Positions 6,069 through 32,000 are shown, counted from the first letter of the stretch. The stretch: 32,000 nt of DNA from Bdellovibrionales bacterium (GCA_965247685.1 OZ252021.1:1-32000), one strand, 5' to 3'. Made by a program: numbers and translations. The notes: generated by a model from the letters alone, not told the origin.

Positions 6069-6269
6069 ATTCAAAATAAAACAATTAAACTAATCTCGAA
6101 TTATTCTAAAAATTGATTTGAATTCTGATTGATTCAGTAATCTCAATGATTAGACTCAGATATTTTGTAATTGTGGAAAAAGTTCTGTGACAGGAGTGAT
6201 ATTTACTTGAAATCCCATAAAAAGGAAAAAATCATTTCTCAATTTATTTTATTATAATGATCTATTTAA

Positions 6270-12440: not shown

Positions 12441-13787
12441 ATGGTACTCAATTCTAATCCGCAGTCTTCGGAAAATATTTCGATTACAAAGCGTATTCAA
12501 AAATCTAGGTCAAAAAAATCTGCTATTCAAGGGTTTATTTCTTGGTCTTCTCAAAACACATTTCAGCAGCAAGAAGTTCAATCTATGGTGAGTATCGGGC
12601 GTGATTCTGGACAAATGGTCATATTGGATGATCCTTTTACATCGCGCAGACATACTCGAATTGAAAAAAAAGAACAGGCAAGCATCACTTCTTTCATACT
12701 AAAAGATATGTCCAGCCGAAACGGGACATTCCTTAATGGAAATAGAATTTTTCAAGCTGTATTAAAAGATGGCGATCGAATCCTCATTGGTCAAACAGAG
12801 TTTATTTTCTCCTCCCAAAGGTTTAATCAGAATTGGGAGATTTTCCACCGCAGTCTGAATCCCAAATGGAATCAGCAGCTATCTCGAATTCCATCACTGG
12901 CTCGAACAGAATTTCCTATCCTCATTCAAGGACCTACGGGGGCTGGCAAGGAGCATGTCGCTCACATGATTCATCAAAATTCTCAAAGAAGCTCTGGCCC
13001 TTATATAAGTGTCAATTGTAGTGCTTTATCTGAAAACTTAGCAGAAAGTGAATTTTTTGGACATATTAAAGGCTCCTATACCGGTGCTAGCAGTGATCGA
13101 AAAGGGGCTTTCTTAACCGCTCATGGAGGAACTCTTTTCTTAGATGAAATTGGAGATCTTCCTTTGAATTTACAGCCTAAATTACTACGAGCTTTAGAGC
13201 ATAAGGAAATTAAACCTGTTGGATCTGACCAAACGATTCGAGTGGATGTGCGTGTTGTTTCTGCCACTCATCAAAATTTACAAAAAAAAGTACTTCAAAA
13301 AGAATTTCGTGAGGACCTTTATTTTCGATTAAGAGTTTTAGAAGTAAAGACTCCTCACTTAAAAGATCGTATGGAAGACTTTGATGCTTTATTGGAGTAT
13401 TTTTCTGTTCAACTGGGCGTTCATTTTTCCAAGGAAGCAAAAAATTACTTAAAAAACTACAGTTGGCCTGGAAACATTCGTGAACTCAAAAATACAGTTT
13501 CTAGAGCTCAGGCTTTTTATTCTCAATCGATTATCACAACATCCCACATTGAAGAAATACTGGATCCTCTGCATGAAGAAGAAATTACACAAACTCCTTC
13601 CATCCCTTACTCTCCTTCTTTACTCAAACAGATAGAAAAAGAAGCTATTTTACGAGTACTTAAAGAAAATAATGGCAATAAAAAGAAAACTGCAGATCAA
13701 TTAAGTATGCCTCGTACCACTTTAACTCAAAAATTAAAAAACTATGGCGTTTTTACAAGATCTCCAAAAGAATTTATCAACAAATGA
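12441..13787 (+). CDS. Sigma-54-dependent transcriptional activator with an N-terminal FHA domain (FHA-AAA+-Fis-type HTH)
   Basis: Canonical FHA signature: SIGRDSG...TSRRHTRI...SSRNGTFLNG...GDRILIG. AAA+ features: Walker A GPTGAGKE, Walker B LFLDEIG, a GAFTGA-loop variant GSYTGA, FREDLYFRL and WPGNIRELKN. C-terminal HTH: KKKTADQLSMPRTTLTQKLKNYG. Confidence 0.9.
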   Translation: MVLNSNPQSSENISITKRIQKSRSKKSAIQGFISWSSQNTFQQQEVQSMVSIGRDSGQMVILDDPFTSRRHTRIEKKEQASITSFILKDMSSRNGTFLNGNRIFQAVLKDGDRILIGQTEFIFSSQRFNQNWEIFHRSLNPKWNQQLSRIPSLARTEFPILIQGPTGAGKEHVAHMIHQNSQRSSGPYISVNCSALSENLAESEFFGHIKGSYTGASSDRKGAFLTAHGGTLFLDEIGDLPLNLQPKLLRALEHKEIKPVGSDQTIRVDVRVVSATHQNLQKKVLQKEFREDLYFRLRVLEVKTPHLKDRMEDFDALLEYFSVQLGVHFSKEAKNYLKNYSWPGNIRELKNTVSRAQAFYSQSIITTSHIEEILDPLHEEEITQTPSIPYSPSLLKQIEKEAILRVLKENNGNKKKTADQLSMPRTTLTQKLKNYGVFTRSPKEFINK

Positions 13788-14878
13788 AATTTCTCATAAT
13801 TCTCTCTTTTTTTCTTTGTTTGTCACCCTCCGTTTATGCTGAAGTCACTTGGTTTTTATCTGAAAAAGAAAGCACTCATAAACTCGCTTTAGTTCCCTCT
13901 TACCGCAGGTCTGAAACTTTAGGCTCTGTAGTCAGTGGACGAATCTTTGTATACCCCACTCAAGAAAGTGGGCTTTACACTTCATTCAGTGCGGACTGGG
14001 GATTTGGAAAAAAAAATTATGGCTTTAAACAAAGCACTATTTACTGGACTCCATCTCAAAATGAGTGGGGATTTTCTGGTGAATGGAATCGGACTTTTGA
14101 CTCCTATTACAAAGAGACATCAACAACTCGACTGGAAGTTCCTATCCGCCAAAGATGGCTCAAAGCTTATTATCTAGATAGTGGTATCTTAAAAAAGATT
14201 CATCCTCAGATTCAAACTGGAATCTCTGTTGAAATTCAAAGTAGAAAAGAAGATGCTGTTCAGCCTTGTATTTTTATTCAAGAGAATACACAAAAACTAA
14301 AAACCCCCTGCCAAGCTTACAATCCGGTAGAACTGGGAGGCACTGTAGGCTGGATTTTACGAATCGACACCCGAGATAACTCCTTTGATCCTTCTGTTGG
14401 TTATCTTTTACAAACGGATTTTCAAATAGGAAAAGAAATAGAAGCTAAAAATTTAATATTCTTTCAAGCAGAAGGTCAAATGCAGTTTATCTTCTCTTTA
14501 TTTCAAAAAGAAAGATGGTTTGTTAAAATAGCTTCGGCTTGGACTTTTTACAACGGTAATTACTCTCACGAACTTCCCTACTCTTTTCAATATAAACTGG
14601 GAGGAATAAATCAACTCAGAGGTTACCTCAAAGATAGATGGCATTCTGATAAATATTATCTCATGCAATTTGAATTTCGTTATCCTATTTCAAAATGGAT
14701 CCAACCTTTGTTGTTTGCAGATATTGGACACGTAGATGTGAATAAAACCCCTCTTTTCACATACGGAGGAGGAATTCGCATTGGATTACCCCCTTCTTAT
14801 AAACAAAAAATTAGAGTGGAATACGGTCGAGGAAAAGATCAATCCAACTTCATCATTTCTTTTGCACGACCCTACTAA
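13784..14878 (+). CDS. Omp85/BamA-family outer-membrane beta-barrel without POTRA domains
   Basis: Signal peptide [19 protein letters not shown]. Surface-antigen (D15) barrel signatures: RIDTRDNSFDPSVGYLLQTDFQIG and KLGGINQLRGY. At 364 aa there is no room for POTRA repeats. The start overlaps the activator stop (ATGA at 13784-13787). Confidence 0.68.
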   Translation: MKFLIILSFFLCLSPSVYAEVTWFLSEKESTHKLALVPSYRRSETLGSVVSGRIFVYPTQESGLYTSFSADWGFGKKNYGFKQSTIYWTPSQNEWGFSGEWNRTFDSYYKETSTTRLEVPIRQRWLKAYYLDSGILKKIHPQIQTGISVEIQSRKEDAVQPCIFIQENTQKLKTPCQAYNPVELGGTVGWILRIDTRDNSFDPSVGYLLQTDFQIGKEIEAKNLIFFQAEGQMQFIFSLFQKERWFVKIASAWTFYNGNYSHELPYSFQYKLGGINQLRGYLKDRWHSDKYYLMQFEFRYPISKWIQPLLFADIGHVDVNKTPLFTYGGGIRIGLPPSYKQKIRVEYGRGKDQSNFIISFARPY

Positions 14879-18751: not shown

Positions 18752-19987
18752 ATGAGTGCACAAACCCTAAGAGGAATGAAAGATCATTGGCCTGCCCAAA
18801 GTGACTCTTATCGTTTAATAGAAAAAACAGCTCGAAAAATACTTCATCAATTTAATTATCAAGAAATTTCCACTCCTTTACTTGAAAGTATTGAAGTTTT
18901 TCAAAAAACTTTAGGCACAGATCTTTTAGATAAAGAACTTTATCAATTTGAAGATAAAGGAGGCTCTGCTATTGCATTAAGACCTGAAGGAACGGCTGGA
19001 GTTGTTCGAGCTTTGATTAATGAAAAAAGCTTAATACTTCCTCTTCGATTGTTTTACTTAGGTCCTATGTTTCGCTATGAGCGTCCACAAAAAGGAAGAC
19101 TCAGACAATTCCATCAAATCGGATGCGAATTTTTTGGAGAATCCTCACCATATGCCGAGCTCGAACTGATTCAAATAGCTGTGAATTTTCTTAAAGAACT
19201 TCAAATACTTCCTCAAACTCAATTGATTGTTAATAGCATTGGAGATGAAGAAAGCCGCCATCAGTATAGAGAAAAACTCTTAAAATACCTAGATCCTTAC
19301 AAAAAAGATTTAAGTGCAGAAAGCCAAGTGCGTCTTATTAAAAATCCACTTCGTATTTTGGATTCCAAATCTGAACAAGATAAAAAAATATTAAAAAAAG
19401 CTCCTCGCCCTTTAGATTCACTCAGTTCTTCATCTCGAGCTTTTTATGATGAAGTTTTAAACCTTCTCACTCAACATAACATTTCTTTTCAACAAAAAGA
19501 TTTTCTAGTTCGAGGTTTGGATTATTATTCACATACTGTATTTGAATTTATAAGCTCAAGCCTTGGAGCTCAAGATACTGTGCTGGCTGGAGGAAGATAC
19601 GACGCTCTCGTTCAAACTATGGGCGGCACACCCTGCCCTGCTATCGGATGGGCTTGCGGTGTAGAAAGATTATCTCTTCTTTGTCCTATTCCATCCCGAT
19701 CTCAGACTTTAGTTTCGATACTGACCACAGACTCCTCTTTGGAAAAAGAAAAAATGACACTCGCTCAAAAACTTCGTGAAAACAGTATTGCCGTCTCACT
19801 TTCCTATAATTTGGATCAAGCCTTGAAAAAGCAATTAAAAAAAGCTCATCAACAAGGGTATTCTCATGTGTTGATATTAGGACTCAACGAGTGGAAAGAG
19901 AATCAAGTGATTCTAAAAAATATGAAAACAGGAGAACAAGAACTCCATTCCAAAAATCTTGAAACCATTATTCCTCTTCTTCGATGA
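18752..19987 (+). CDS. hisS: Histidine--tRNA ligase
   Basis: RGMKDHWP, RPEGTAGVVR, MFRYERPQKGRLRQFHQIG and AGGRYD, plus a C-terminal anticodon-binding domain; 411 aa. Confidence 0.95.
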   Translation: MSAQTLRGMKDHWPAQSDSYRLIEKTARKILHQFNYQEISTPLLESIEVFQKTLGTDLLDKELYQFEDKGGSAIALRPEGTAGVVRALINEKSLILPLRLFYLGPMFRYERPQKGRLRQFHQIGCEFFGESSPYAELELIQIAVNFLKELQILPQTQLIVNSIGDEESRHQYREKLLKYLDPYKKDLSAESQVRLIKNPLRILDSKSEQDKKILKKAPRPLDSLSSSSRAFYDEVLNLLTQHNISFQQKDFLVRGLDYYSHTVFEFISSSLGAQDTVLAGGRYDALVQTMGGTPCPAIGWACGVERLSLLCPIPSRSQTLVSILTTDSSLEKEKMTLAQKLRENSIAVSLSYNLDQALKKQLKKAHQQGYSHVLILGLNEWKENQVILKNMKTGEQELHSKNLETIIPLLR

Positions 19988-19998
19988 GGATTGAATCA

Positions 19999-20550
19999 TT
20001 AAGAGTATTCTTTGATTTGAATAACAGCAAAATTAATTTCTCTAACTCCAGCCTCTGTCAAAGTGTACATAATTTTCTTAATACTTAAAAAATCAATATC
20101 TTCATCGGCCTGTAAAGTTAACTTTTCGTAGGGAAAAATACGTGACACTCCTTCTCTTTTGGTCACCACCACATCATTTTTTGTCTCTTTCTTCAAAATT
20201 TCAATTTCTTGATTCACTCGATCTCTTAATTTTTCAATCATCCAATCTTTATCTCTTTGCACTTCAGAAAAAGTAGCCATTTTTTGACCATTAAAAAGCA
20301 CGGCATCTTTAGAGAAAATGACCACCAAAGAAGGGACGAGTTGTGCTGTACTTGTCGCCTGAGGAAGATCCACTTGATTTGAAATAGGTAAGATCTGATT
20401 CGTAGAAGCATAGTTTTGTAAAAGAAAGACTACTAAAACTGTGAACATATCCACCATCGCTGTTAACTGAAGAACAGCCACCACTTCCCTTTTTGAAGCA
20501 TGTGCTCTTTTATTTCTACGATCTCGGAATCCAGGAACATGAATGGGCAT
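19999..20550 (-). CDS. ExbD/TolR-family protein, second paralog (at the AglS position of the stator trio)
   Basis: Basic N-terminus followed by a single TM segment with a conserved acidic residue (LQLTAMVDMFTVLVVFLL) and a periplasmic alpha/beta domain. The ATG overlaps the upstream stop by 1 nt (TAATG at 20548-20552). Confidence 0.8.
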   Translation of the reverse strand: MPIHVPGFRDRRNKRAHASKREVVAVLQLTAMVDMFTVLVVFLLQNYASTNQILPISNQVDLPQATSTAQLVPSLVVIFSKDAVLFNGQKMATFSEVQRDKDWMIEKLRDRVNQEIEILKKETKNDVVVTKREGVSRIFPYEKLTLQADEDIDFLSIKKIMYTLTEAGVREINFAVIQIKEYS

Positions 20551-21026
20551 TACATCACCTCTCCTGTTGCAATAGTAATTCCCGAAAACCCTTGGGCTAA
20601 AAGGACATCCATTGCCTTAATTAAATTTTTGTAAAGCATTTGATCTTCTGCCGTCACCACCACATCTATTTTTTGAGGATAGCTCTTTTTAATTTTCTTC
20701 AAACTCTTTTGAAGGGCTCTATGGTCATACTCCCCTCTTCGAGAAATAGGAATAAGTTCAATCTGCGATCCCAACACCACTTTATAACCACGAGAAAGCA
20801 CATCTATTCGAAACGGAATTTCTGCAAGAGGAGTGACAACAGCAGGAGGTGTATCATCTACTTTTTGAGCATAAACACTGCTACCTAATTGAATCATTGA
20901 AACCTGAGTCCAAACTGCAGTGATAAGCAGGAAGATAATACACACACTCATCAGGTCAATAAATGGAACTAAGTTAAGATCCACAACACCCGATCTTTTA
21001 CCAGTATTCTCTTCAGTATAAGTCAT
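20550..21026 (-). CDS. ExbD/TolR-family protein, first paralog (at the AglQ position)
   Basis: DLNLVPFIDLMSVCIIFLLI is the classic ExbD/TolR TM segment with the conserved Asp; 158 aa. Confidence 0.85.
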   Translation of the reverse strand: MTYTEENTGKRSGVVDLNLVPFIDLMSVCIIFLLITAVWTQVSMIQLGSSVYAQKVDDTPPAVVTPLAEIPFRIDVLSRGYKVVLGSQIELIPISRRGEYDHRALQKSLKKIKKSYPQKIDVVVTAEDQMLYKNLIKAMDVLLAQGFSGITIATGEVM

Positions 21027-21066
21027 GTATCACCTTTTAAAAAATCTTAACTAAACTTTTATAGCT

Positions 21067-21750
21067 TTAAGATTTTTTCAAAGCTTTATCTCGGTTTGAA
21101 ACCACATGATTCATCAAATTCATCGTACTTTCCAACATATCATTAATAGCCCGACTAATTTGAATTTGAAAGAACCCATAAGCCACGATAGCTATAATTG
21201 CAACAAACAAACCAAAAGCTGTACAGTTTAAAGCTTCCGAAATCCCTTTAGAAAGTAAAGCCGCCTTAGTTGCAGCATCTGATTCAGCCACACCACCGAA
21301 AGCTCGAATCAAACCTATAATGGTACCTAACAAACCCACCAAGACACTCACATTGCCAAAGACTGCCAGCAGTGAAGTCCACCCTTCTAAACGAGGAGTT
21401 TCCCGAAGTACAGAAGCATCCATAGCGACCTGCACTTCTTCATCCGGTCTCTTGTTCATCACTTGAACTAAACCTGCTTTCATTGTGTTGGTTAAAGGAG
21501 CGGGGGTTGCATCACAAAAGGCAATGGCCTGTTGTATTTGACCCTGTAACACCATTCCAAAAATGGAACTACTTGCAGATGCTTTATCTATAGAGAATTT
21601 TCTTAGATTAAAAAGCCGTTCTAAAATAAGCACAAACACAAGGATACCGACAGCAGCAATGAAGTACATCGCCAAACCGCCTTCGCAAAAAGCTTTAGCA
21701 AAAAAGTTGCTATAGTTAACACATTCTAAACCTTTAGCTAATTCGTCCAC
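21067..21750 (-). CDS. MotA/TolQ/ExbB-family proton channel (at the AglR position)
   Basis: Three TM segments. ExbB/TolQ signatures GLLGTIIGLIRAFG and EALNCTAFGLFVAIIAIVAY. GTG start at 21750 is preceded by AAGGAGG with a 7-nt spacer. Confidence 0.88.
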   Translation of the reverse strand: MDELAKGLECVNYSNFFAKAFCEGGLAMYFIAAVGILVFVLILERLFNLRKFSIDKASASSSIFGMVLQGQIQQAIAFCDATPAPLTNTMKAGLVQVMNKRPDEEVQVAMDASVLRETPRLEGWTSLLAVFGNVSVLVGLLGTIIGLIRAFGGVAESDAATKAALLSKGISEALNCTAFGLFVAIIAIVAYGFFQIQISRAINDMLESTMNLMNHVVSNRDKALKKS

Positions 21751-21866
21751 AAAGACACCTCCTTAATTTAAGCGTATTCCAATGAATACTCTTTTATTTC
21801 AACAAAATTTGAATAGAATACCAACACTTTTTTTTGTTCTCCTTTTATGTGTCTAAAAAATATCCA

Positions 21867-23939
21867 CTAACTTCCAACAAAGACAAATGGATACCCCACG
21901 ACACCTTGACCTCCAGGAGGAACGACTCCTGGAAATTTCCAAGTTTTTAATCGAGCCTTAATGCATTGAGCTAATTTTTTACTTCCTGAGCCGTTACTTA
22001 AAATAGAAACATTCTTGACTACTCCATTATAGATTGTCCATTGGACTTTGATCCGACCCTTTATAGATGGATTATTTTGTAAAACGGAACTATGACACCG
22101 AGCGAGTTGCGCTTTATGTGCTTGTACAATTCTAAAAATAGCGTCCTTATCTAAATTCCCTTCTACATCCACCTCAGAAGTACCAAAGGAAAGATCGACA
22201 GATCCTCGATTTCCTAATCCTCCACCTCTTCTATACCCTTTGATTCCCCCAACTTTTCCTTTTGTAGAAATTCCAGCAATACCGATAATGTTTGAGCCTC
22301 GCCCCCCTGAACCAGCATCTTTAAATTTCGTACCTAGACCATCACCCTCATAAGTCTCTGCAGTTCCTGAAAAACCAGTTGCTTGATCCGCAAGACCTCC
22401 AAGCTCCCCAGCACCAGAATAAGCTTTATCCAATTGTTTTTTCATTCCACTTTTTCCAAAAACTCCAAGTAAACCCACCTTGTTCGGATCGGGCTTTGGA
22501 CTTCTCGCTCCTGAACCTGGTTTTTTTGTCTTAATAGGTGAACTGCCAGATCGTGCAGTAGTCACAACTTTTTTCCTACTTTTCGCTTTTTTCTTGGAAG
22601 CTACCGCACCCATACGTCCTTTTTTAGACTTGGCTTTCTTTTTTATTTGCGGAGTTTTATTAGATTTCTTCGGAGATTTTTTCATTCGAATAGGAATATT
22701 TTTTTTCTTACTTTTTTGGACTTTCTTTTCTGCAATGCGTATTATTTTTTTGGGTGATGGAGGTTTAATTTGCACCACCACTCGACGAATCTTTGTTTCC
22801 TCTAACTTTTCCTCATCCACTAAAGATGGATAATAAACTCCAAAGAAGAAAAATAAAACTAACATGAAACAAACCGAAAGTCCTAACCCAACCAATTCTG
22901 CTTCATTAAAACCAAACAAAGCTCCGGGGTTTGGTTTCGCTTTCAAAGCCGTATAACGAATATATATATGTAAAGAAGAAGAAAAATGAACACAAATAAT
23001 TTCATTCTGCCCTAAAGAAATGCAATAGCCTGAAGGAACTTGATTCATTACTCCTTTTTCAATAGCCACCTTAAAACTGACAGACTTGTTGTTTCGAATA
23101 ATTTTTCCACTCATATGAGAACCAATATGAACCTGAGCTACAGATCCTGTTTGCACTAAATTATAAAGCTCATCGTTCACCATATTAGGTATACGAATGG
23201 AAGCCTTGGAATGATTTCCTATAGTGACGACCTCGTTTTTTTTCGCATGATAAACAGATATAACGCGATCTTCCCAAGCAACCAACACCTCAACTTTATC
23301 CCCTTTTCCAATAGGAATTTCTTTTTCTAAATTTTCAATACGGCTTTTTGGAGCAAAAGTTTTTTTGGACATACGAAGAGGAAGAAAGTTTTTCCAAAGG
23401 TTTTTTCCTCTAGAAGGTGTGGTATCTAAGTTTCGTGAAAGAGGTTTTTCTTTTGGTGGACTCACCTCCTGTGGAGAATCCAAAACTTTTGGTTCTTCTG
23501 TTTTCTGAATGGGAGGCGGAGTCGACTCAGAAATATCAGGAGATTCTGAAACTTCCAATATCTCTTCTTCCACCGCCCCTTCGAGAGGTGGAATCTCTTG
23601 TTCTTTTTGTGGATGGCTTGTTGATTTTTTATGACTGTAAGGAGCTCCTAAAAAAAACTCAATCAAAAACGGAGCAATTTGAATTTTATCTCCTGACTGA
23701 ATCACAGATTCTACTATTTTTTGACCATTGAGCAGTGTTCCGGAAGAACTGCCTAGATCGGAAAGAAAATACTCCTCTCCTCTTTTTTCAATAAAAGCAT
23801 GCCAAGGCAATATATCATCCGCTTGCAGACGGACTTCAATCTCTTCATTGCTCCCAATAGAGAAATGTTCTTCGCTCAACTGCTGAATATTCAAAAGCTT
23901 ATTATCTTTATAAATTTTTAAAAAAATAGTTTTACTCAA
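21867..23939 (-). CDS. FHA-like domain / single TM / Lys-rich linker / Gly-rich segment / TonB_C-like C-terminal domain protein (GltG/AgmX- or NfsG-like)
   Basis: The N-terminus has an FHA-like pattern: FSIGSNEE...LPWHAFI...DLGSSSGTLLNGQKI...GDKIQI. An acidic Pro/Glu/Ser linker follows, then a second beta-rich region and the TM segment LVGLGLSVCFMLVLFFFFGVYY. Next come a basic linker (KKVQKSKKKNIPIRMKKSPKKSNKTPQIKKKAKSKKGR...) and a Gly-rich stretch. The C-terminal approx. 90 aa follow a TonB_C-like pattern (IKGRIKVQWTIYNGVVKNVSILSNGSGSKKLAQCIKARLKTWKFP). Confidence 0.75.
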   Translation of the reverse strand: MSKTIFLKIYKDNKLLNIQQLSEEHFSIGSNEEIEVRLQADDILPWHAFIEKRGEEYFLSDLGSSSGTLLNGQKIVESVIQSGDKIQIAPFLIEFFLGAPYSHKKSTSHPQKEQEIPPLEGAVEEEILEVSESPDISESTPPPIQKTEEPKVLDSPQEVSPPKEKPLSRNLDTTPSRGKNLWKNFLPLRMSKKTFAPKSRIENLEKEIPIGKGDKVEVLVAWEDRVISVYHAKKNEVVTIGNHSKASIRIPNMVNDELYNLVQTGSVAQVHIGSHMSGKIIRNNKSVSFKVAIEKGVMNQVPSGYCISLGQNEIICVHFSSSLHIYIRYTALKAKPNPGALFGFNEAELVGLGLSVCFMLVLFFFFGVYYPSLVDEEKLEETKIRRVVVQIKPPSPKKIIRIAEKKVQKSKKKNIPIRMKKSPKKSNKTPQIKKKAKSKKGRMGAVASKKKAKSRKKVVTTARSGSSPIKTKKPGSGARSPKPDPNKVGLLGVFGKSGMKKQLDKAYSGAGELGGLADQATGFSGTAETYEGDGLGTKFKDAGSGGRGSNIIGIAGISTKGKVGGIKGYRRGGGLGNRGSVDLSFGTSEVDVEGNLDKDAIFRIVQAHKAQLARCHSSVLQNNPSIKGRIKVQWTIYNGVVKNVSILSNGSGSKKLAQCIKARLKTWKFPGVVPPGGQGVVGYPFVFVGS

Positions 23940-23957
23940 TGTATGATAGCCTCTTTT

Positions 23958-24218
23958 TTACTCCAGTTCTCCTGCTGTTCGTCTCATTTCAGGAAGAAAA
24001 TCCTTTTTCAAATCCACAAGCTTATCATATTCCAATTGTTGCTTATTGAATAAGTGAAAAATAGTCGGGTTTTTAACATGACCTTCAATAAATTCATCTT
24101 CAAAGTCTACAGTGTATATTCGTTTTTTCCCTTTCTTCGCTATAGCTCCACTTATAAAAAGAGCTGAAGCAATGATCAAGCCAACATATAATATTTTATA
24201 TTTTCTAAATATTTCCAT
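23958..24218 (-). CDS. Small single-pass membrane protein (at the gltF/nfsF position)
   Basis: 86 aa with one TM segment (ILYVGLIIASALFISGAIA). It starts 3 nt after the upstream stop and ends 18 nt before the next start, so it is embedded in the operon. Support is positional only. Confidence 0.5.
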   Translation of the reverse strand: MEIFRKYKILYVGLIIASALFISGAIAKKGKKRIYTVDFEDEFIEGHVKNPTIFHLFNKQQLEYDKLVDLKKDFLPEMRRTAGELE

Positions 24219-24221
24219 ATA

Positions 24222-24971
24222 TTACCTCTTTTTATTAAGTTTCTTTTTTAACAATTGCACTCTTTTTCTATCCCTTGAATTTCGAGCCCTAATGTCCGCA
24301 CGATCAAGCATTTTTTGTGCTTCTTCGTAGTCATTAAAACTTTCCATTAAAAGCAACGCATAATTCATTAAAATCAAAGAATTTTCTTTTTTCTTTTTTA
24401 TAACAGTTTTGTAGATTTTTCTGGCTTTCTTCTCTTTTCCAGACAATCTTAATGCCAGAGCATAGTTATGTGCAATAGGTGCAAAGAATTTAGACAGTTG
24501 ATCATCAGAATAAACATCTTCCAGTAAAGGTAGAGCTTTTCGTACATTCAAATTTTCCATATAAAGCGAAGAGAGTGCAACTCGAGCTGGATGATAAGAC
24601 CTACTTTTTTTCAAACTCTGCTCAAAAGCAAGAATTGCTTTTTGTTCATCTTTTTCTTTCAAAGCAATAAGACCTTGAGCGTAATACAAGGCCTCCTCAT
24701 GAGGATGATATTGAACTGCTTTTTCAAAAAGAATCCGAGCAATTCCTATTTGATTTCTTTCTAAATGATATGTTCCTAATTTATACAAAGCACCTAAGTG
24801 TTTAGGATTCTCAGATAAAACACGGCGAGCCCAAGTTTGAAATCGTGATAGATTTTTACTATTATACGCTTGATTCATTTTTTTTACTTTCTGATCCAAT
24901 GAAAGAATCTCTTCGGCCTCAACAAAAAGAGCAAAGATCCATATCAAAGTAAATAATTTGAATTTACTCAT
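24222..24971 (-). CDS. Secreted TPR-repeat protein (GltE/AglT- or NfsE-like)
   Basis: Track ORF 24222..25070. The start is moved to the ATG at 24971, which forms an ATGA overlap with the stop of the 1040-aa gene. This gives the signal peptide MSKFKLFTLIWIFALFVEA. Several TPR-like units are present (e.g. GALYKLGTYHLERNQIGIARILFEKAVQYHP). Confidence 0.7.
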   Translation of the reverse strand: MSKFKLFTLIWIFALFVEAEEILSLDQKVKKMNQAYNSKNLSRFQTWARRVLSENPKHLGALYKLGTYHLERNQIGIARILFEKAVQYHPHEEALYYAQGLIALKEKDEQKAILAFEQSLKKSRSYHPARVALSSLYMENLNVRKALPLLEDVYSDDQLSKFFAPIAHNYALALRLSGKEKKARKIYKTVIKKKKENSLILMNYALLLMESFNDYEEAQKMLDRADIRARNSRDRKRVQLLKKKLNKKR

Positions 24972-27900
24972 CTCAAAACTCCAGCAGGAATAGTCCTTAA
25001 AGCAGATCCCTCTATAGAAAAAGATCCTTTTTCCAAATTGATATTTTCTAACTGCGCCTTTTTCAACCATGAGGTGTAACTGAGTGAACTTCTCGCTTTT
25101 TGAATAGCCTGAGCATAATAACCCTTGGCCACTTTTTGAAAAGGAGTCGCTGTTTTTACAAGCCCTTTCTTATAGGCTTTTCGACCTTGAGCATCTAACC
25201 CTTTGGGTATAGGAGAGCGAATGATCACATTATAGAGGTGGTGATTAGACAAACCCATCAAAGTCAAAGAGGCTATAATTTGTGGATTATAATTCAGTCG
25301 AATGACATTTTTAATATCTTCTTTCAAACGATTGAGTAATTGAAGCTTAGACCGCATGGCTCGAGCCTGTTGATTTGGATTAGAAGATAAACGAATGCGA
25401 GTAAACTTATTATAAATTTGTTCAGAAGAGTAGAATCGAGCTTGAGAAGCGTACTCCACACCTTGCTTTGTTTTTCGGTACATATTTAAAGTTATACGAT
25501 ACCATTTTTGCATCTCTTGTTTTCTTCTTAATTTCTTATTTAACTCAGCAATACGAAAAGTAGACATCACTTGAGCTCTTTTATTTTGATCGGGACGATT
25601 CAAGTATTTCTGATAAAGCTGAATAGATTTGGAATAACTTTTCCTTCTTTCATACATTCGAGCAATCAAGAAGTATACTTGATTTCTTTCCACTCCTTTT
25701 TTACTCAAACGAAAATACTTCATGTAAGCTTCTTCTGCAGATTGATAGAAGTTTAAGCCATCAAAAATAATAGCGGCATTATACCAAAAGGAAGCAGCAT
25801 TTTTATCTTTAGGATAAGTTGTAGCATAACTTTTATAAGATTGAGCTGCTTTGAGATACTGCCCAGAGTTTTGAAGAATTTCCGCTATATCCCGCATCAC
25901 ATTTTTTTTAATTTTAGGATACTTCGAAAGCTGTGGAGAGTTATAAAGTATGTCATAAAGATTTCTAGATTTACTAATCTCTTTTGCCTTCTCATAATTT
26001 AAAGCTGCATTGTAAAGCGCAACTACGGTCAAATCGGAGCCTGTATTTTTACGATAAAACTCTTCATACATCTTTGCACTCGCTTTATATTTTTTATTAT
26101 TAGCTAAATCTTGGGCTGCTTTGAACTGAATTTGCCTTAAAATTTTATTAATCTCTTGAGCAATAGGTAATTTTTGAATCATAGATTGTTTAAGAAAGTA
26201 CTGCCCTGTCTTTTTTAAAGAATCAAAATCTTTTATCAAGTTATAAGTGTCCAATACTAAGTGAATCGATTGAGTATAATAAGATTTTTTTGATGAAGGA
26301 TAACTTCGAATCAAAATCATCCAATACTTAATAGCTGTTTTGTAATGTCGATACTCCGAGTGCAGATTAGCGAGAGTATATATAATTTGAGGGGCTTGAG
26401 ATTTTTTCTTATACCTCTTTAAATAATCCCCCACCGCTTCTTCGAAGGCTACAACATTTGAAGGAAAAGGAACAGCTCCAGACTGACCCTTTAAAGAAGC
26501 TTTCACTTCTCGTTCATTTGGTAATGCTTTTTCTAAAGCTAAGATTCTATTCCAAGAAGCTACAGGGTGGTTTTTAGATTTTGGATAATTATTCACTACA
26601 ACACTATACTGTTTCACCGCATCTAAAAAACGACCGACATCAAAAAGAAGCTCTCCGTATTGAAAACGAATGTCAGAATTAAAATCTGACTTTGGAAAAA
26701 CCAAGGTATAAAGTTGATAAGCTAATAAAGCTTGTTCCTTTGCATACTTTTGCTTGCTCTTTAAAAAAGAATGGTGCATCACAAAGGCATAGTTTCTTAT
26801 CGTCAGCTCCATTAATTTATTAGATTTTTGAATCAATTCTTTTTGAGAACGATGCTTACGAGACCAATCACTTTTAGGACCATAGTTCTTCACCCATTCT
26901 TTAAGTTCTTTATTAAAAGTTTTTCGATCTCCTTTATAAGCATAGACTTGAACAATTTCATGTTTATATTCAAAAGCAAAACGATTCAAGGGAACAAGTT
27001 TTAAAATAAAATTAAATACGAAACGCATATTTTGATATTCACCCGCATCCTTGTAGGCAAAACCTACTTTTCTCAATATAGATAAAGTTTTTTCTTCATC
27101 ATTGGTTAAATCATAAAAATAAGAATAAGCATTACTGGCTTTATAATTGGAATAAATATAAAAACTTCCCAAATCATTTAAAGCTTCCTGCGAAAGATCG
27201 ATAAAAATTAAAGATTTCCCTTGATTTTTTATTCGAGACTCTTTAATGAGACTTGCCAAAACCTTTATTGCATTAGAGATCCGACCTTCGTTGTAAAAAC
27301 ACCAAGCTATTTTATAGATAGAAAAAGAATAAAACTTCGCTCGGTATCGAGAAGCTCTACTGTAATACTTACGAGCCGTCTTCCATTGATTTTGTTCAAA
27401 GTAGTGATCCCCTAAGTGAAAATAGGCGTCTTCAATGTTGCTGTTTTTAGGATATTGACGAATCAGCCTTTCATAATATTTTTTACCAATATGAGGTTTT
27501 CTAATCTGAACATAACTAAACCCTAAATTAAAAAGAGCGTCCGAAGCATATTTTCCTTTAGGGTATCTTTGAATATAGGATTCGTATAAATTAATGGCTT
27601 TTTGAGAGTACTCCTTAACTACGGATAAGTTGATGCGAGGGGCTCTTGTAGTCGATCCCATTTTATATAGCTCTAAATCTTCTGTGTATTTTTCATAAAT
27701 ACGACTTTCGATCAAGCGAGCCTGCTCTACATAAAGAGAGGCGAGTCTTAATTGGATATCCGATCGAGGACTAATTTTAAGAAGTTCATAAAGTTGTTTG
27801 ATCTCCCTTAAGGTCACATCTTCGAGTTGAGCTTCATCACTTCCCTTTTCAAAATAAAGACGACTGCTAGAAGGAGGCTTCACATATTTTAATAATTCTT

Positions 27901-28090
27901 TTTTCTTTTTACCTTTTTTTTGAAAGAAAGATTTCCCTCGAGGTAAACTCCCTTTTTGCCTTTTGATGCTCTTAGATGATCGAGTCGCCACCAACCAAGA
28001 AGACTCTTCTTGAGCGACACTCCAACTCAGACTACCCAAAATGAGCAGAATGATGCAAATTCTAAGGGCGACAGTTTTGCGATCCCACAT
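24968..28090 (-). CDS. Large secreted TPR-repeat protein, 1040 aa (GltD/AgmU- or NfsD-like)
   Basis: Signal-like N-terminus MWDRKTVALRICIILLILGSLSWSVAQ. TPR-like helical repeats run through the whole length (recurring A..Y..Y/F...YP motifs, e.g. YESYIQRYPKGKYASDALFNLGFSY and YERLIRQYPKNSNIEDAYFHLGDHYF). Confidence 0.75.
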   Translation of the reverse strand: MWDRKTVALRICIILLILGSLSWSVAQEESSWLVATRSSKSIKRQKGSLPRGKSFFQKKGKKKKELLKYVKPPSSSRLYFEKGSDEAQLEDVTLREIKQLYELLKISPRSDIQLRLASLYVEQARLIESRIYEKYTEDLELYKMGSTTRAPRINLSVVKEYSQKAINLYESYIQRYPKGKYASDALFNLGFSYVQIRKPHIGKKYYERLIRQYPKNSNIEDAYFHLGDHYFEQNQWKTARKYYSRASRYRAKFYSFSIYKIAWCFYNEGRISNAIKVLASLIKESRIKNQGKSLIFIDLSQEALNDLGSFYIYSNYKASNAYSYFYDLTNDEEKTLSILRKVGFAYKDAGEYQNMRFVFNFILKLVPLNRFAFEYKHEIVQVYAYKGDRKTFNKELKEWVKNYGPKSDWSRKHRSQKELIQKSNKLMELTIRNYAFVMHHSFLKSKQKYAKEQALLAYQLYTLVFPKSDFNSDIRFQYGELLFDVGRFLDAVKQYSVVVNNYPKSKNHPVASWNRILALEKALPNEREVKASLKGQSGAVPFPSNVVAFEEAVGDYLKRYKKKSQAPQIIYTLANLHSEYRHYKTAIKYWMILIRSYPSSKKSYYTQSIHLVLDTYNLIKDFDSLKKTGQYFLKQSMIQKLPIAQEINKILRQIQFKAAQDLANNKKYKASAKMYEEFYRKNTGSDLTVVALYNAALNYEKAKEISKSRNLYDILYNSPQLSKYPKIKKNVMRDIAEILQNSGQYLKAAQSYKSYATTYPKDKNAASFWYNAAIIFDGLNFYQSAEEAYMKYFRLSKKGVERNQVYFLIARMYERRKSYSKSIQLYQKYLNRPDQNKRAQVMSTFRIAELNKKLRRKQEMQKWYRITLNMYRKTKQGVEYASQARFYSSEQIYNKFTRIRLSSNPNQQARAMRSKLQLLNRLKEDIKNVIRLNYNPQIIASLTLMGLSNHHLYNVIIRSPIPKGLDAQGRKAYKKGLVKTATPFQKVAKGYYAQAIQKARSSLSYTSWLKKAQLENINLEKGSFSIEGSALRTIPAGVLR

Positions 28091-29585
28091 AATGATAATT
28101 CCCCAGTTCGTCTAACCAGTATTCTCCTTGAAAAGGATAATACTCAAATCCATTTTGAATAAAATAATCTCGGCTTGTACTTGCCGTGATTTGAACATTT
28201 CCAAAATGTTTTGATTTAATTTTTCTCTTTAGCAGTTCTCTTTTTCCACGCAAACTCTCATAACGTAAGTATTTTTCCTGATTCAACAAGCTCCTCAGTT
28301 CTGACTTCATAACTAATAAGTGCTGTTTGATATTTTTATTAATATTAGATTGCGCTCTTTTGAGATATTTTTCCACTAAATTTTCTGAATACCGACCTAT
28401 TTGAGACGCCCTCCAATACTGAGGTCGACCTTGGATCACCCGAAGCTCACTTTGAAGATATCGAACATAACGATTCAAAAGCTCAAAGTCGTACTCTCTA
28501 CTAATTCTGTTCGCAATCACTGGAGGAAAAGAATTGGAAGAAGAACGAAGGGATCGGGTGAGATTGGCATAATAAAATTGAGAAGAAGACGAAAGGATTC
28601 GATTCACTTTTTTATACAAAGGCTGATAAGTAATCTTGAATAAACTCAGCACTTTTTCCATCTCTGAGTATTTACATATATACATATATATTATTCCTCT
28701 TAAAAGAAGAGAGCCTGGTTGATACACTTTATCATAATAATCAGAGTGCAAAGTAAGAAAACTATTCATTGCAGAACGAAACTTCCCTCCCCTCAGTAAG
28801 GCCCAACTGCTTTCAAAAAGCATATCATGCCATTCTGGAGTATCTCGGGGAATTCTCCTATAGTACTGAATTGCTAAGTCCCATCTTTTAGCCTGATAAT
28901 ACACACGGGCTATCCCCATTAAGGCGGCCACTCGGACAGAATCTGTGACCTTGCTTGTTTTGGATAAAATATTTTTAAAAGCATCCGTAGCTCTTCGAGT
29001 TCGCTTCCTTTCTGCATAAGAAAGCCCCAGATGATACTGAGCCTTAGAATAAAGAGGGCTGTGTTTTGGAATTTTTTTAAAATAAATAGCAGCCTTACGA
29101 TACTTTTTACTACTCAACTCATGTTTACCCCAGTAATAGTAAAGAGAATACCTGTAAGCCCCTTTGACTTTTTGAGCTCCTCCGTTTTCAACAGCAAATT
29201 GGATCATCTGACTGTTTCCGATCAGAGAGGCAATTTCAGACAGGTGAGCCAAAGCCCGCTGAGCAAACTTAGAGTTTCCAGATTGAATCACTGATAAAAA
29301 TTGAAAAGAAGCCACATGAAATAACTTCATTTTAACAAGAGCCTTCCCTAATTCATAACGAATTTCTGTTCTGCGTTTTTTTAAAGTCGCACTTTTACTC
29401 ATCATGAATAATTTTTGAACTCCCTTTTCATACTTTCCATTCGATATTAAAGCTAAAGCCTGACTGAGTTGAATACGATCTTTCATTTTATTTCGAATCT
29501 GTCTGGATTTTTGAAGCGAATACTTGCTCGTACGAGCTTCTGCACTCCCCATCAATAAGAAAAAAGTCAAAAATATATATCTCAA
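28062..29585 (-). CDS. Secreted TPR-repeat protein, 507 aa (GltC- or NfsC-like)
   Basis: TTG start at 29585, with GAGG 7 nt upstream and 4 nt after the preceding stop. Signal peptide MRYIFLTFFLLMGSAEA. The N-terminal two thirds contain TPR-like repeats. The 3' end overlaps the next gene by 29 nt. Confidence 0.65.
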   Translation of the reverse strand: MRYIFLTFFLLMGSAEARTSKYSLQKSRQIRNKMKDRIQLSQALALISNGKYEKGVQKLFMMSKSATLKKRRTEIRYELGKALVKMKLFHVASFQFLSVIQSGNSKFAQRALAHLSEIASLIGNSQMIQFAVENGGAQKVKGAYRYSLYYYWGKHELSSKKYRKAAIYFKKIPKHSPLYSKAQYHLGLSYAERKRTRRATDAFKNILSKTSKVTDSVRVAALMGIARVYYQAKRWDLAIQYYRRIPRDTPEWHDMLFESSWALLRGGKFRSAMNSFLTLHSDYYDKVYQPGSLLLRGIIYMYICKYSEMEKVLSLFKITYQPLYKKVNRILSSSSQFYYANLTRSLRSSSNSFPPVIANRISREYDFELLNRYVRYLQSELRVIQGRPQYWRASQIGRYSENLVEKYLKRAQSNINKNIKQHLLVMKSELRSLLNQEKYLRYESLRGKRELLKRKIKSKHFGNVQITASTSRDYFIQNGFEYYPFQGEYWLDELGNYHYVGSQNCRP

Positions 29586-29589
29586 GAAA

Positions 29590-30348
29590 CTACCTCACAA
29601 CCTTTTGAGGAAAATAAAAACTGACGGCTAATTTCATATAAGTATCCCAGTAATGTTGATTGCTAGGTATATTTTGAGAAAAAAGTAAACTTCCATAATA
29701 ATGAAACCCTATATCTACTTTGAACGCAAGATTTCGAGATAGAGAATAAGACTGACCAAAACCTAATACCAACGTCGGCTCAAACCAAGATTCCGTTGCA
29801 GCACAAGAAACACCCGTTGCTACATTTACAGATCGGCACTGTTGCACTTGGCTCATTCCTCCTCCCACAATTATTGAAAAATCAAAAGGGATAATCTTTT
29901 TATTCCACCATGCCATTTTTCCGTAAACAGGAGTCCATTTATAAAGTAAACCGGCAAACCCTATTGTGCTGGCTCCTTTAGAAGCTGCACTAATACGTAA
30001 ATTCTCATAAATATCAAAAGCCACTTCTCGATTCACTTGAAATAAATAAAATCCTTTTAATTCCAATCCATGTTTTTCTAAAAAATAAAACCCAACACTT
30101 CCCCCCAAACCCAATTTGAAGAAAAACTCACTGCTGAAAAATATAGATACAGAAGGAGAGATTTCAAATCGACCTGTCTTTTGTAAAAAACGTCTTTGAA
30201 TCACGACAATATCTTCAAAAGCAGATAGACGATTGAGATTATCAGAAAGTTGCATCGGTATATCATCATTGATTGTAAAAGCGTAACTCGAATTCACAAA
30301 TAGTAAACTCAAACCTATAATCCATAAGTATTTTTTCACAAATTTCAT
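29590..30348 (-). CDS. Predicted outer-membrane beta-barrel protein, 252 aa (GltA/GltB/NfsA/NfsB-like by position and size)
   Basis: Signal peptide MKFVKKYLWIIGLSLLFVNSSYA. Alternating hydrophobic beta-strand pattern with Gly/aromatic girdles (GLGGSVGFYF, GFAGLLYKW, LVLGFGQSYSL, KLAVSFYF). Confidence 0.62.
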   Translation of the reverse strand: MKFVKKYLWIIGLSLLFVNSSYAFTINDDIPMQLSDNLNRLSAFEDIVVIQRRFLQKTGRFEISPSVSIFFSSEFFFKLGLGGSVGFYFLEKHGLELKGFYLFQVNREVAFDIYENLRISAASKGASTIGFAGLLYKWTPVYGKMAWWNKKIIPFDFSIIVGGGMSQVQQCRSVNVATGVSCAATESWFEPTLVLGFGQSYSLSRNLAFKVDIGFHYYGSLLFSQNIPSNQHYWDTYMKLAVSFYFPQKVVR

Positions 30349-30433
30349 AAACTTAAAAAACCCCTTTTTATTTCATACTGCTGCAAACTCATCTAAAACT
30401 ATCCTTCACTCAAATTATTCGAATATAAAAAGT

Positions 30434-31267
30434 TTAAAATAACAAAGCTCCAAATCCAGCTCCTACTAAGTTTCTAAAAACAAAAGATTTTTCAAATTGA
30501 TCATAATTTTTAGTTTGTGAACGGTATAAAGAACAAGAACGAGAATCCACTTTATCAACTGGAAGACTGACAGCTCCTATTCTACACCAAACTGGATTCG
30601 GTCCATAATAGAAAAAAAATCTCAACCAACCATGAATATAGAATCTTTTCCCAATAAAAATCTTTTGATTGATCCCAGTTATAAGGATAGGCGCAAAATA
30701 CAATTGTGATAAATCATAAGATTCGTAAGGACCAGGGTTTCGATCCTGAACCAGAGCAACCGTACCTCCTCCTAAATGAAGAGAAATATTATAGTTCATC
30801 ACAACATTTTTAAGCAAAGACAACTTTCCGTAAAAGGGTATCCAATTATAGTTCAACAAAAAAGCATATCTAGGATGAGGAACTTCCGTTGCGTGAAAAG
30901 AAATATTTTGTAACTCTGTATTGGGTTTGGAGAAGAACTCTCCTATAGAAGAAACCCCTTGAAAAAAGTACATACCTAAGAGGCTTAGACCATGAGCTTC
31001 ACTAAGAAAAAACCCTACATCTCCAGTAAAAGCCAGTCGAGAGTAAAAAGGATCATCAGCTCTATAATCTATAGAACTCATCATACTCATCTTATATTTT
31101 AACTTCACATTGCGATTCATGGTTACTTTGTTATTATCTGGAAAAATAGGGAGAACAGATTCTGCAGCAAGCTCTTCTTCTGGAAAACGAATTTCACGAG
31201 CCTCCACCCATAAAGAACAAAATAGAAAAAAACAAGCTATTTTGAGACATAAGAACCCAAATGGCAC
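30434..31267 (-). CDS. Predicted outer-membrane beta-barrel protein, 277 aa (GltA/GltB-family-like paralog)
   Basis: Track ORF 30434..31363 uses a TTG start. The start is moved to the GTG at 31267 because AAGGAG lies 9 nt upstream. The product then begins with a signal peptide (M)PFGFLCLKIACFFLFCSLWVEA. The strand pattern is similar to the 252-aa neighbour (FTGDVGFFL, LLNYNWIPFYGKLSLL, LVGAGFGALLF terminal Phe). Confidence 0.6.
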   Translation of the reverse strand: MPFGFLCLKIACFFLFCSLWVEAREIRFPEEELAAESVLPIFPDNNKVTMNRNVKLKYKMSMMSSIDYRADDPFYSRLAFTGDVGFFLSEAHGLSLLGMYFFQGVSSIGEFFSKPNTELQNISFHATEVPHPRYAFLLNYNWIPFYGKLSLLKNVVMNYNISLHLGGGTVALVQDRNPGPYESYDLSQLYFAPILITGINQKIFIGKRFYIHGWLRFFFYYGPNPVWCRIGAVSLPVDKVDSRSCSLYRSQTKNYDQFEKSFVFRNLVGAGFGALLF

Positions 31268-31482
31268 GATAAAATACTCCTTAAAACCAAAGGTTAACTG
31301 TTTATATTTTAAATGACTATTTAATAAATGTGTAGTGACATTAGTAAAGAGGTCGAGTTCCAAGAAGACTCTTATAGATCACTTTATGACAGGAGCAAAA
31401 TCCAGACTTCATGCTCTGATAAACCTATGGGTGAGTGTATAAAATATAGACACTATAGTGGCTTATTTATTAATGAAAAAAG

Positions 31483-32000
31483 TTAGATACGGATAGAAAT
31501 ATCCATAAAAGCTAAATGATCGATTTTGTTCTCATCTGAGGCAGAGATTTCTTTACCTCGCATTGTATATTTAAGCCCCAATGCAACACCATCGCTTAAG
31601 AAATACTTTAGAGCTAAGCGATGCCCTGAATATCCTGTGCCACCAATATCATAATCCACATAGTTGCTGAAGGCGACATCTGTGGGCAATCTAAAGTAAT
31701 GATAACTGGCATTGAATTGCTGGTTTTGTTGATGTCCAAAAACTCCACCAACAACAAATCCTAAAGTTTCTAAGGATGCGCTATTGATATAACCCGATCC
31801 AAAATTTTGAATCAAATTCAAAGATAAAGAAAGAGGAGTGCTTAATTCCACACCTTTGAATCTAAGATTCTTAATGTCCATTCTTACAAGCAGATCCAAT
31901 ACAGAATAATTATATTTGTAACTTTGTTGTTTTGTTTTTGCAGATTCCAATACACTGTTGGTTGTATATGTACTCGAAACAAACATATCTTTTGTAGGCA
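31483..32000 (-). CDS. Predicted beta-barrel/outer-membrane protein, C-terminal part (probably runs off the right edge)
   Basis: The track gives 31483..31986 from an ATG, but the frame stays open to position 32000 and the listed N-terminus has no signal peptide. Beta-strand-rich sequence (GFVVGGVFGH, HRLALKYFLSDGVALGLKYTM). Confidence 0.45.
   Translation of the reverse strand, partial: PTKDMFVSSTYTTNSVLESAKTKQQSYKYNYSVLDLLVRMDIKNLRFKGVELSTPLSLSLNLIQNFGSGYINSASLETLGFVVGGVFGHQQNQQFNASYHYFRLPTDVAFSNYVDYDIGGTGYSGHRLALKYFLSDGVALGLKYTMRGKEISASDENKIDHLAFMDISIRI

Follow-up and report, generated by a model that had tools for sequence, protein, structure and literature searches.

A collinear glt-agl gene array in a Bdellovibrionales genome, probably an orthologue of the Bd0828-Bd0838 cluster of Bdellovibrio bacteriovorus

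In Myxococcus xanthus, the components of the Agl-Glt machine are encoded at three loci: G1 (gltD-J), G2 (gltK-B-A-C) and M1 (aglRQS). The related nfs genes go back to a glt/nfs duplication that arose inside the Myxococcales. Bdellovibrio bacteriovorus HD100 possesses four clusters of this type, termed "expanded core complexes", and of these Bd0828-Bd0838 was considered the strongest candidate for a gliding apparatus; the other three run in the order C, B, G, F, D, S, Q, R and are devoid of GltE (Luciano et al. 2011, PMC3169522). The same study found no GltH, I, J or K in Bdellovibrio and proposed the combination of AglRQS with GltA-G as the mark of a potential glider. Here we examine a 32,000-nucleotide (nt) stretch of DNA from a Bdellovibrionales bacterium (GCA_965247685.1 OZ252021.1:1-32000), referred to as the window, in which an original prediction, made from the sequence, had recognized a complete Agl-Glt/Nfs-type motor encoded as one gene array at positions 19999-32000.

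We conclude, with a probability of roughly 0.78, that this array is an orthologue of the Bd0828-Bd0838 expanded core complex and specifies an envelope-spanning machine of the Agl-Glt/Nfs class, likely to serve gliding or prey contact. The open reading frame (ORF) map resolves ten complete genes at 19999-31267 and one further gene that is cut by the window end, all on the minus strand. Sizes are given in amino acids (aa), TM denotes transmembrane, and the evidence for each assignment follows in brackets.

19999..20550, minus: AglS-like TolR/ExbD subunit, 183 aa, the last gene of the array (PF02472, TM segment, Bd0838-type orthology)
20550..21026, minus: AglQ-like TolR/ExbD subunit, 158 aa (PF02472, TM Asp24)
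21067..21750, minus: AglR-like proton channel of the TolQ/ExbB/MotA family, 227 aa, 3 TM segments (PF01618, TolQ alignment)
21751..21866, minus: gltG-aglR gap, 116 nt, candidate internal promoter/operator of the stator genes (conserved blocks)
21867..23939, minus: GltG-like force transducer, 690 aa (NF033760, NF033768, AlphaFold, Foldseek)
23958..24218, minus: GltF/CglF-like small connector, 86 aa, hydrophobic N-terminus (anchor or signal) (NF033764)
24222..24971, minus: GltE-like TPR protein, 249 aa from ATG, signal peptide without lipobox (NF033758)
24968..28090, minus: GltD-like large periplasmic TPR scaffold, 1040 aa, signal peptide without lipobox (TPR families, Bd0832-type match)
28062..29585, minus: GltC-like periplasmic TPR protein, 507 aa (NF033756)
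29590..30348, minus: GltB-like outer-membrane beta-barrel, 252 aa (TIGR04565, Bd0829-type orthology)
30434..31267, minus: GltA-like outer-membrane beta-barrel, 277 aa from GTG (TIGR04565, Bd0828-type orthology)
31268..31482, minus: 215-nt intergenic region, candidate operon promoter or 5' leader (about 70 conserved nt; ribosome-binding site of the gltA-like gene)
31483..32000, minus: 3' part (171 codons) of a Porin_5-family porin gene, cut by the window end (full-length homologues in relatives)

The gaps within the array measure 215, 85, 116 and 40 nt. The genes for the 507-aa and 1040-aa proteins share a 29-nt overlap, those for the 1040-aa and 249-aa proteins are joined by an ATGA overlap, and the two ExbD genes (183 and 158 aa) overlap by 1 nt; the ORF map agrees in gene sizes, strand and junctions with what had been listed originally. 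Two genes can be read from an earlier start, the longest ORF being 282 aa rather than 249 aa (from ATG) for the GltE-like protein and 309 aa rather than 277 aa (from GTG) for the first complete barrel. For the barrel, the 277-aa start is favoured, as had been proposed, by a ribosome-binding site (AAGGAG) that precedes the GTG at 31267 by 9 nt. Pfam recognizes ExbD twice, MotA_ExbB once, FHA once and TPR repeats in three proteins; with the two TIGR04565-type barrels of NCBIfam, these are the domain classes first assigned, and the cut gene likewise encodes a barrel.

Is this arrangement peculiar to the window? Using the GltC-like protein, we scanned one genome per species and retrieved 75 loci, almost all of them labelled Bdellovibrionales or Bdellovibrionota. 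The order A-B-C-D-E-F-G-R-Q-S is present in every locus long enough to show it. The recurrence of the same ten-gene order in every sufficiently long related locus means that the arrangement is not due to chance; adjacency of gltA-G to the agl genes is kept among genomes only 25-60% identical. Collinear best matches were obtained in L030, L062 and L004, the B. bacteriovorus locus. In a one-directional blastp comparison of best matches within loci, the window proteins are 26-62% identical to the B. bacteriovorus proteins at the same positions (E values from 7.7e-16 to 6e-158). The lengths of the latter (241, 263, 525, 1058, 287, 108, 711, 221, 158 and 196 aa) match those tabulated for Bd0828-Bd0838 (240, 266, 529, 1066, 281, 707, 221, 158 and 196, GltF being unlisted; Luciano et al. 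2011, PMC3169522), and their order is unique among the four HD100 clusters, which identifies L004 as Bd0828-0838. The collinear array is therefore the standard published arrangement of the Bdellovibrionales, known since 2011, and the window contains a new orthologue of it. What was originally likened to three M. xanthus loci placed end to end is not a new fusion of them. The "collinear 11-12 gene array" shrinks to the ten genes whose order recurs in relatives, with membership of the cut porin gene uncertain.

Two loci, L071 and L077, are organized differently. The Glt set of L071 (8834-12488) is incomplete, consisting of barrel, GltC, GltF and barrel, and looks like Bd3598-3601. L077 (7277-19037), on a 1.8-Mb contig, shows a barrel followed by GltC-, D-, E-, F- and G-like genes and a 297-aa gene, with no adjacent stator, a layout that resembles nfs.

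The 690-aa protein matches the GltG model NF033760 over its full length (4.6e-58; residues 1-688 against model positions 1-646 of 650) and passes the NF033768 model of the AgmX/PglI C-terminal domain (81 bits, cut-off 40). The GltJ model matches it solely through this shared C-terminal domain. In an AlphaFold model built on 36 homologues, three domains are predicted with confidence: FHA (residues 1-100), a second beta domain (200-333) and a C-terminal one (590-690). A TM helix spans residues 346-380, and residues 384-580 are disordered. A Pro/Glu/Ser-rich linker connects the FHA domain to the second beta domain. The periplasmic linker is rich first in Lys (29% over residues 375-480) and then in Gly (26% over 480-595), and many of its glycines are invariant across the family. 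The same architecture has been described for M. xanthus GltG, from an FHA domain and a second beta domain through a TM helix and a disordered linker to the C-terminal domain (Cambillau and Mignot 2025).

A Foldseek search with the full-length model returned FHA domains only (3e-8), and we therefore modelled and searched the C-terminal domain alone (pLDDT 88.6, AlphaFold). TonB C-terminal domains, together with a TonB homologue, account for 13 of the 14 top matches (E values of 3e-3 to 7e-2, probabilities of 0.87-1.0); TolA follows. In the predicted structure, the resemblance to TonB thus appears weak and confined to the fold level, as reported for M. xanthus GltG and GltJ (Cambillau and Mignot 2025). 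A canonical TonB assignment, named in the original prediction as part of what would count against it, is contradicted by sequence models: with TIGR01352 (TonB_C) the protein reaches 13.8 bits where 27.1 are required, and it gives no match to Pfam TonB_C.

The FHA domain (residues 1-100; 23640-23939) lacks the usual phosphothreonine-binding residues, with GS in place of GR, PWH in place of SxxH and SSSGT in place of S/TxNGT, and the consensus of the 36 homologues reads the same. Judged by these substitutions, the domain may be phospho-independent. GltI, which would be a candidate partner of this domain, is reported missing from Bdellovibrio (Luciano et al. 2011, PMC3169522).

The 227-aa protein matches PF01618 (MotA_ExbB) at 3.4e-28 and has three predicted TM segments; its alignment to solved TolQ structures covers TM2 and TM3, including conserved Thr positions. 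It is 85% identical to its counterpart in L001, a close relative, and 62% identical to that of B. bacteriovorus (blastp). The 158-aa protein matches PF02472 (ExbD) at 4.8e-16, is exactly as long as Bd0837, and its Asp24 aligns with the essential TM Asp of E. coli TolR. The 183-aa protein matches PF02472 at 4.4e-12 and has a TM segment at residues 22-45; Asp34, as read from the sequence, lies in an equivalent TM context. A sequence search among solved structures gave no match for this AglS-like protein.

Could the locus be a divergent Tol-Pal or TonB-ExbBD system, acting in outer-membrane integrity, division or energised uptake, that happens to lie beside TPR and barrel genes? Its stator proteins do match TolQ, TolR, ExbB and ExbD models, its transducer ends in a TonB-like fold, and the summed repeats of the 1040-aa protein lift it above the cut-off of the YbgF/CpoB TPR model (91.9 versus 90.1 bits). 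The NCBIfam equivalog scores of the stator proteins nevertheless stay far below their cut-offs (TolQ 78.8 versus 221 bits, TolR 36 versus 127 bits), and two different TolR-like subunits are a signature of Agl motors. The transducer carries FHA domains and matches GltG from end to end while failing TonB_C. No TonB-dependent receptor, TolA, TolB, Pal or CpoB is encoded in the window, and the array as a whole is orthologous to a Glt-type cluster. We therefore consider a Tol or TonB system very improbable, in keeping with the initial judgement that this is not an ordinary uptake or Tol-Pal locus.

The remaining proteins complete the Glt-type part list. The GltA-like (277-aa) and GltB-like (252-aa) barrels score 44.3 and 59.2 bits, respectively, with TIGR04565, whose NCBIfam cut-off is 60; their B. 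bacteriovorus orthologues, the Bd0828-type L004:8336-9061 and the Bd0829-type L004:9075-9866, score 107 and 117 bits. From this orthology we infer the order A-B-C, as in nfsA-C. The published table gives Bd0828 as MXAN_2541, apparently instead of MXAN_2540 (Luciano et al. 2011, PMC3169522), which makes the naming of the two barrels as A and B inferential. Of the internal order predicted from M. xanthus, D-E-F-G and R-Q-S stand, and K-B-A-C gives way to A-B-C.

The GltC-like 507-aa protein matches NF033756 at 1.5e-54 over residues 29-505 and is 40% identical to its B. bacteriovorus orthologue. Among NCBIfam profiles, the 1040-aa protein hits general TPR models only and none specific for GltD. 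Its counterpart at the same position in B. bacteriovorus, the Bd0832-type protein, shares 31% identity with it across some 990 aa (6e-158); Bd0832 is listed as a homologue of MXAN_4870, gltD (Luciano et al. 2011, PMC3169522). The GltE-like 249-aa protein matches NF033758 at 7.6e-13 and its position is conserved across loci. For the 86-aa protein, NF033764 (CglF, which is GltF) is matched at 8e-6 over residues 27-85. These matches to GltG, GltC, GltE, CglF/GltF, TIGR04565 and the AgmX/PglI domain, joined by one MotA_ExbB and two ExbD proteins, uphold the predicted inventory and answer the concern that the TPR and barrel proteins might be unlike the Glt/Nfs families. We observe directly the gene content and order, the domain architectures, the stator residues and the orthology to Bdellovibrio.

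GltE of M. xanthus is described as a lipoprotein. The B. bacteriovorus orthologue (L004:14605-15468) bears the lipobox LAAC; the GltE-like proteins of the window and of L001 have a plain signal peptide and no lipobox Cys.

How might such a machine be wired? Subunit contacts, stoichiometry and cellular role are proposed here from experiments and models on the homologous M. xanthus machine. A pentamer of the AglR-like protein would enclose a heterodimer of the AglQ- and AglS-like subunits, and proton flow via their TM Asp residues would power the motor. The motor would act on the GltG-like protein at its only TM helix and at the beta domain next to the membrane. For M. xanthus, there is experimental evidence that AglR and GltG interact (Luciano et al. 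2011, PMC3169522). The Lys-/Gly-rich linker of the GltG-like protein would cross the cell wall and wrap around the GltD TPR pillar, on which the TonB-like domain would be seated and to which GltE would be bound. The small GltF could link GltG and GltD to GltC, and GltC would dock beneath the GltA/GltB barrel pair in the outer membrane, such that motor work would reach the cell surface. Sequence conservation relative to L001 fits this motor-to-surface model: it is highest in the C-terminal 60 aa of the GltF-like protein (90% identity, the most conserved stretch of the array) and in AglR (85%), and lowest in the barrels and the porin (about 44%).

The most likely use of the machine would be slow surface gliding together with surface contact for prey attachment, entry and exit. 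B. bacteriovorus glides, and gliding serves it to scout for prey and to leave prey. When a transposon disrupts Bd0838 (aglS), prey attachment, killing and rounding are all lost. The mutant phenotype, a loss of prey attachment, can also be taken to mean that a machine of the same class does a job other than locomotion, moving or holding an adhesin, a polysaccharide or a prey-contact structure in the manner of Agl-Nfs or of an attachment and invasion device. The A-to-G order in a single cluster is the nfs layout, Agl-Nfs moves a polymer (the spore coat) and not the cell, and the core complex is present in non-gliding bacteria (Luciano et al. 2011, PMC3169522). Moreover, reduced, low-GC, sponge-associated Bdellovibrionota have been reported to have lost motility genes and to be without flagella, pili and chemotaxis genes. 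Yet a cluster outside the Myxococcales cannot be an Nfs orthologue: since the glt/nfs duplication happened inside that group, the window cluster is co-orthologous to Glt and Nfs alike. The "nfsA-G-like operon with its own stator" of the original prediction accordingly holds for the A-to-G order and for the stator, and fails as a statement of Nfs orthology. The window encodes no sporulation or polymer-export genes, Bdellovibrio does glide, and AglRQS with GltA-G is the proposed hallmark of potential gliders. We therefore judge a purely non-locomotory role to be unlikely, although it is the strongest competitor of a gliding and prey-contact machine.

Several points weigh against our interpretation. 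Bits relative to NCBIfam cut-offs are 197/650 for GltG, 186/450 for GltC, 48/225 for GltE and 26/90 for CglF; with equivalog scores so far below the cut-offs, the Glt proteins of the window are distant homologues. The connection to M. xanthus runs through profiles and Bdellovibrio orthologues rather than through a direct reciprocal comparison, and searches with the GltD- and GltG-like queries found Bdellovibrionales-type proteins only and no named Myxococcus sequence. For the 1040-aa protein, the GltD-like assignment runs solely through its Bd0832-type counterpart. In M. xanthus, GltH, I, J and K as well as CglB are essential; a search of the window revealed none of these Glt proteins and no CglB-like adhesin, in the array or outside it, and its gene inventory is also free of MglA and AglZ, the absence of GltI, GltJ, MglA and AglZ having been anticipated. 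According to a 2026 review, the machinery behind gliding in Bdellovibrio "remains unidentified", and the link between cluster and gliding stays hypothetical on that account. That the source organism itself glides or preys is a supposition.

The intergenic regions bear on transcription. In the 215-nt region (31268-31482, minus strand), a block of about 70 nt is near-invariant between the window and L076:6553-6842, where the proteins are 75% identical. It includes AATGTyACTACACATTTATTAAATArYCATTTAAAATATAAACAGTTAACCT, lies directly upstream of the ribosome-binding site of the gltA-like gene, and could act as operon promoter or leader. The gltG-aglR gap was aligned across five genomes (window 21751-21866, L076:16302-16419, L001:17716-17830, L002:17749-17861, L003:17830-17940), which have the blocks TGGATATwTTTTAtACA, AAAAAGTrTTGGT and TCAAAyTTTGTTGAAAT in common even though their proteins are only about 55% identical. 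The last block includes the inverted repeat TTCAA-N6-TTGAA and a possible extended -10; the conserved sequence also comprises TTGGTA-N17-TGAAAT, with a possible TGn extended -10, and TGTTGAAAT. Conservation in both gaps is well above the identity of the neighbouring coding sequence. No RNA structure was predicted for the gltG-aglR gap (-1.2 kcal/mol), scans for sigma-70 promoters and terminators did not exceed shuffled expectation, the sigma-54 promoter pattern occurred at chance level, and Rfam and tRNA scans returned no matches. The conserved blocks suggest that the stator genes of this clade have their own internal promoter or operator, and that the porin gene is a separate transcription unit.

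Do these promoter-like blocks divide the locus into two or three independent units (porin, gltA-G, aglRQS) that are mere neighbours and do not build one machine? The Agl motor of M. xanthus is indeed encoded apart and shared between complexes, and the porin adjoins the array in one clade only. The adjacency of glt and agl genes in every sufficiently long locus, at 25-60% identity, argues otherwise, as do the AglR-GltG interaction of M. xanthus and the gltG-aglR junction of B. bacteriovorus, just 33 nt long; separate promoters would be compatible with a single complex in any case. Of all the alternatives, we give this one the least credence.

What is the cut gene? Its reading frame (31483-32000) is open to the window end, and its product is 44% identical to the C-terminus of a 443-aa protein (L001:6874-8205) that matches Pfam Porin_5 at 2.9e-12. 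The L076 equivalent (5194-6552) comprises 452 aa, and full-length homologues in the nearest relatives span 443-455 aa. By this homology, the cut gene encodes a Porin_5-family outer-membrane protein of a predicted 445 aa or so. GltK (MXAN_2538), which the predicted K-B-A-C order had placed here, is an outer-membrane lipoprotein of about 140-170 aa, and homology to it is ruled out by size and by the Porin_5 family; GltH is ruled out on the same two grounds. The context beyond the window end was read from relatives L001-L003 and L076, the window's small-genome clade, which alone has a porin gene upstream of the array. No porin counterpart lies beside the B. bacteriovorus cluster. In these four relatives the gene before the porin gene is EF-G-like and divergent, which sets the upstream limit of the array. 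Membership of the porin in the operon is uncertain.

The source contig, on which the GltD- and GltG-like proteins have exact matches, comprises 1,280,446 bp, and the window has 36% GC. Contigs of the closest relatives (64-75% identity) measure 1.1-1.4 Mb, L001 being a 1.40-Mb chromosome; L002 is the metagenome-assembled genome (MAG) RHO3_bin_17. The small contig, the size of its relatives and the low GC content point to a genome-reduced Bdellovibrionales lineage. The remaining genes of the window are housekeeping genes (recG, lysS, fba, bamB, dnaJ, pyrG, sodB, cca) and a sigma-54 activator. In the region 18752-19999, a convergent hisS gene ends 11 nt from the aglS-like stop codon. In relatives (L001:19810-21183; L076:18308-19693), rpoN, encoding sigma-54, follows aglS on the same strand, and its replacement by hisS implies a local rearrangement at the 3' end of the array. 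The genes for a sigma-54 enhancer-binding protein (12441-13787) and for an Omp85/BamA-like barrel of 364 aa (13784-14878) share 4 nt, an unusual pairing.

Because both the class of machine and the exact gene order were published in 2011, our findings leave general knowledge of Agl-Glt machines unchanged. Their value is comparative: the full ten-gene array is intact in a genome about a third of the size of that of B. bacteriovorus, and its retention in a reduced genome argues that it is indispensable to that lifestyle. More speculatively, and in our estimation improbably, the Bd0828-type array could be the sole engine of surface motility or prey contact kept in the reduced clade, a minimal Agl-Glt machine with a separately regulated stator and a clade-specific Porin_5 outer-membrane partner that replaces GltH/I/J/K and CglB. 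The conserved C-terminus of GltF, AglR, the linker glycines and the C-terminal domain of GltG could guide mutagenesis in B. bacteriovorus.

How, then, does the array relate to the known systems? With Tol-Pal and TonB-ExbBD it shares a proton-driven stator family of the 5:2 type, a domain of TonB/TolA fold, a single-pass transducer and a long periplasmic linker. Those systems employ one type of TolR/ExbD subunit, as opposed to two here, and the transducer of the window has cytoplasmic FHA domains. The Nfs system (nfsA-H) also occupies one cluster, has its genes in A-B-C-D-E-F-G order and uses an AglRQS-type motor. Unlike the array, it includes NfsH (the ORF map has no NfsH/GltH-like gene after the gltG-like gene), is without a stator of its own, and functions in sporulation, in spore-coat transport of M. 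xanthus.

The Agl-Glt machine of M. xanthus has the same classes of components, namely an AglR/Q/S stator, a GltG with FHA, TM and TonB-like domains, GltD/E/C TPR scaffolds, GltF and GltA/B barrels, and the wiring proposed for the window is modelled on it. It is encoded at three loci rather than in one array, includes the GltH, I, J, K and CglB that the window lacks, and has a Pro-rich GltG linker in place of the Lys/Gly-rich one. B. bacteriovorus HD100 has a 3.8-Mb genome with 50% GC, compared with the contig of about 1.28 Mb and 36% GC examined here. The upstream Porin_5 gene, the motif-bearing gltG-aglR gap of 116 nt, a GltE without lipobox and a different downstream neighbour distinguish the window from its Bd0828-Bd0838 cluster. 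Both clusters consist of the same ten genes, which agree in order and orientation and encode proteins of similar length.

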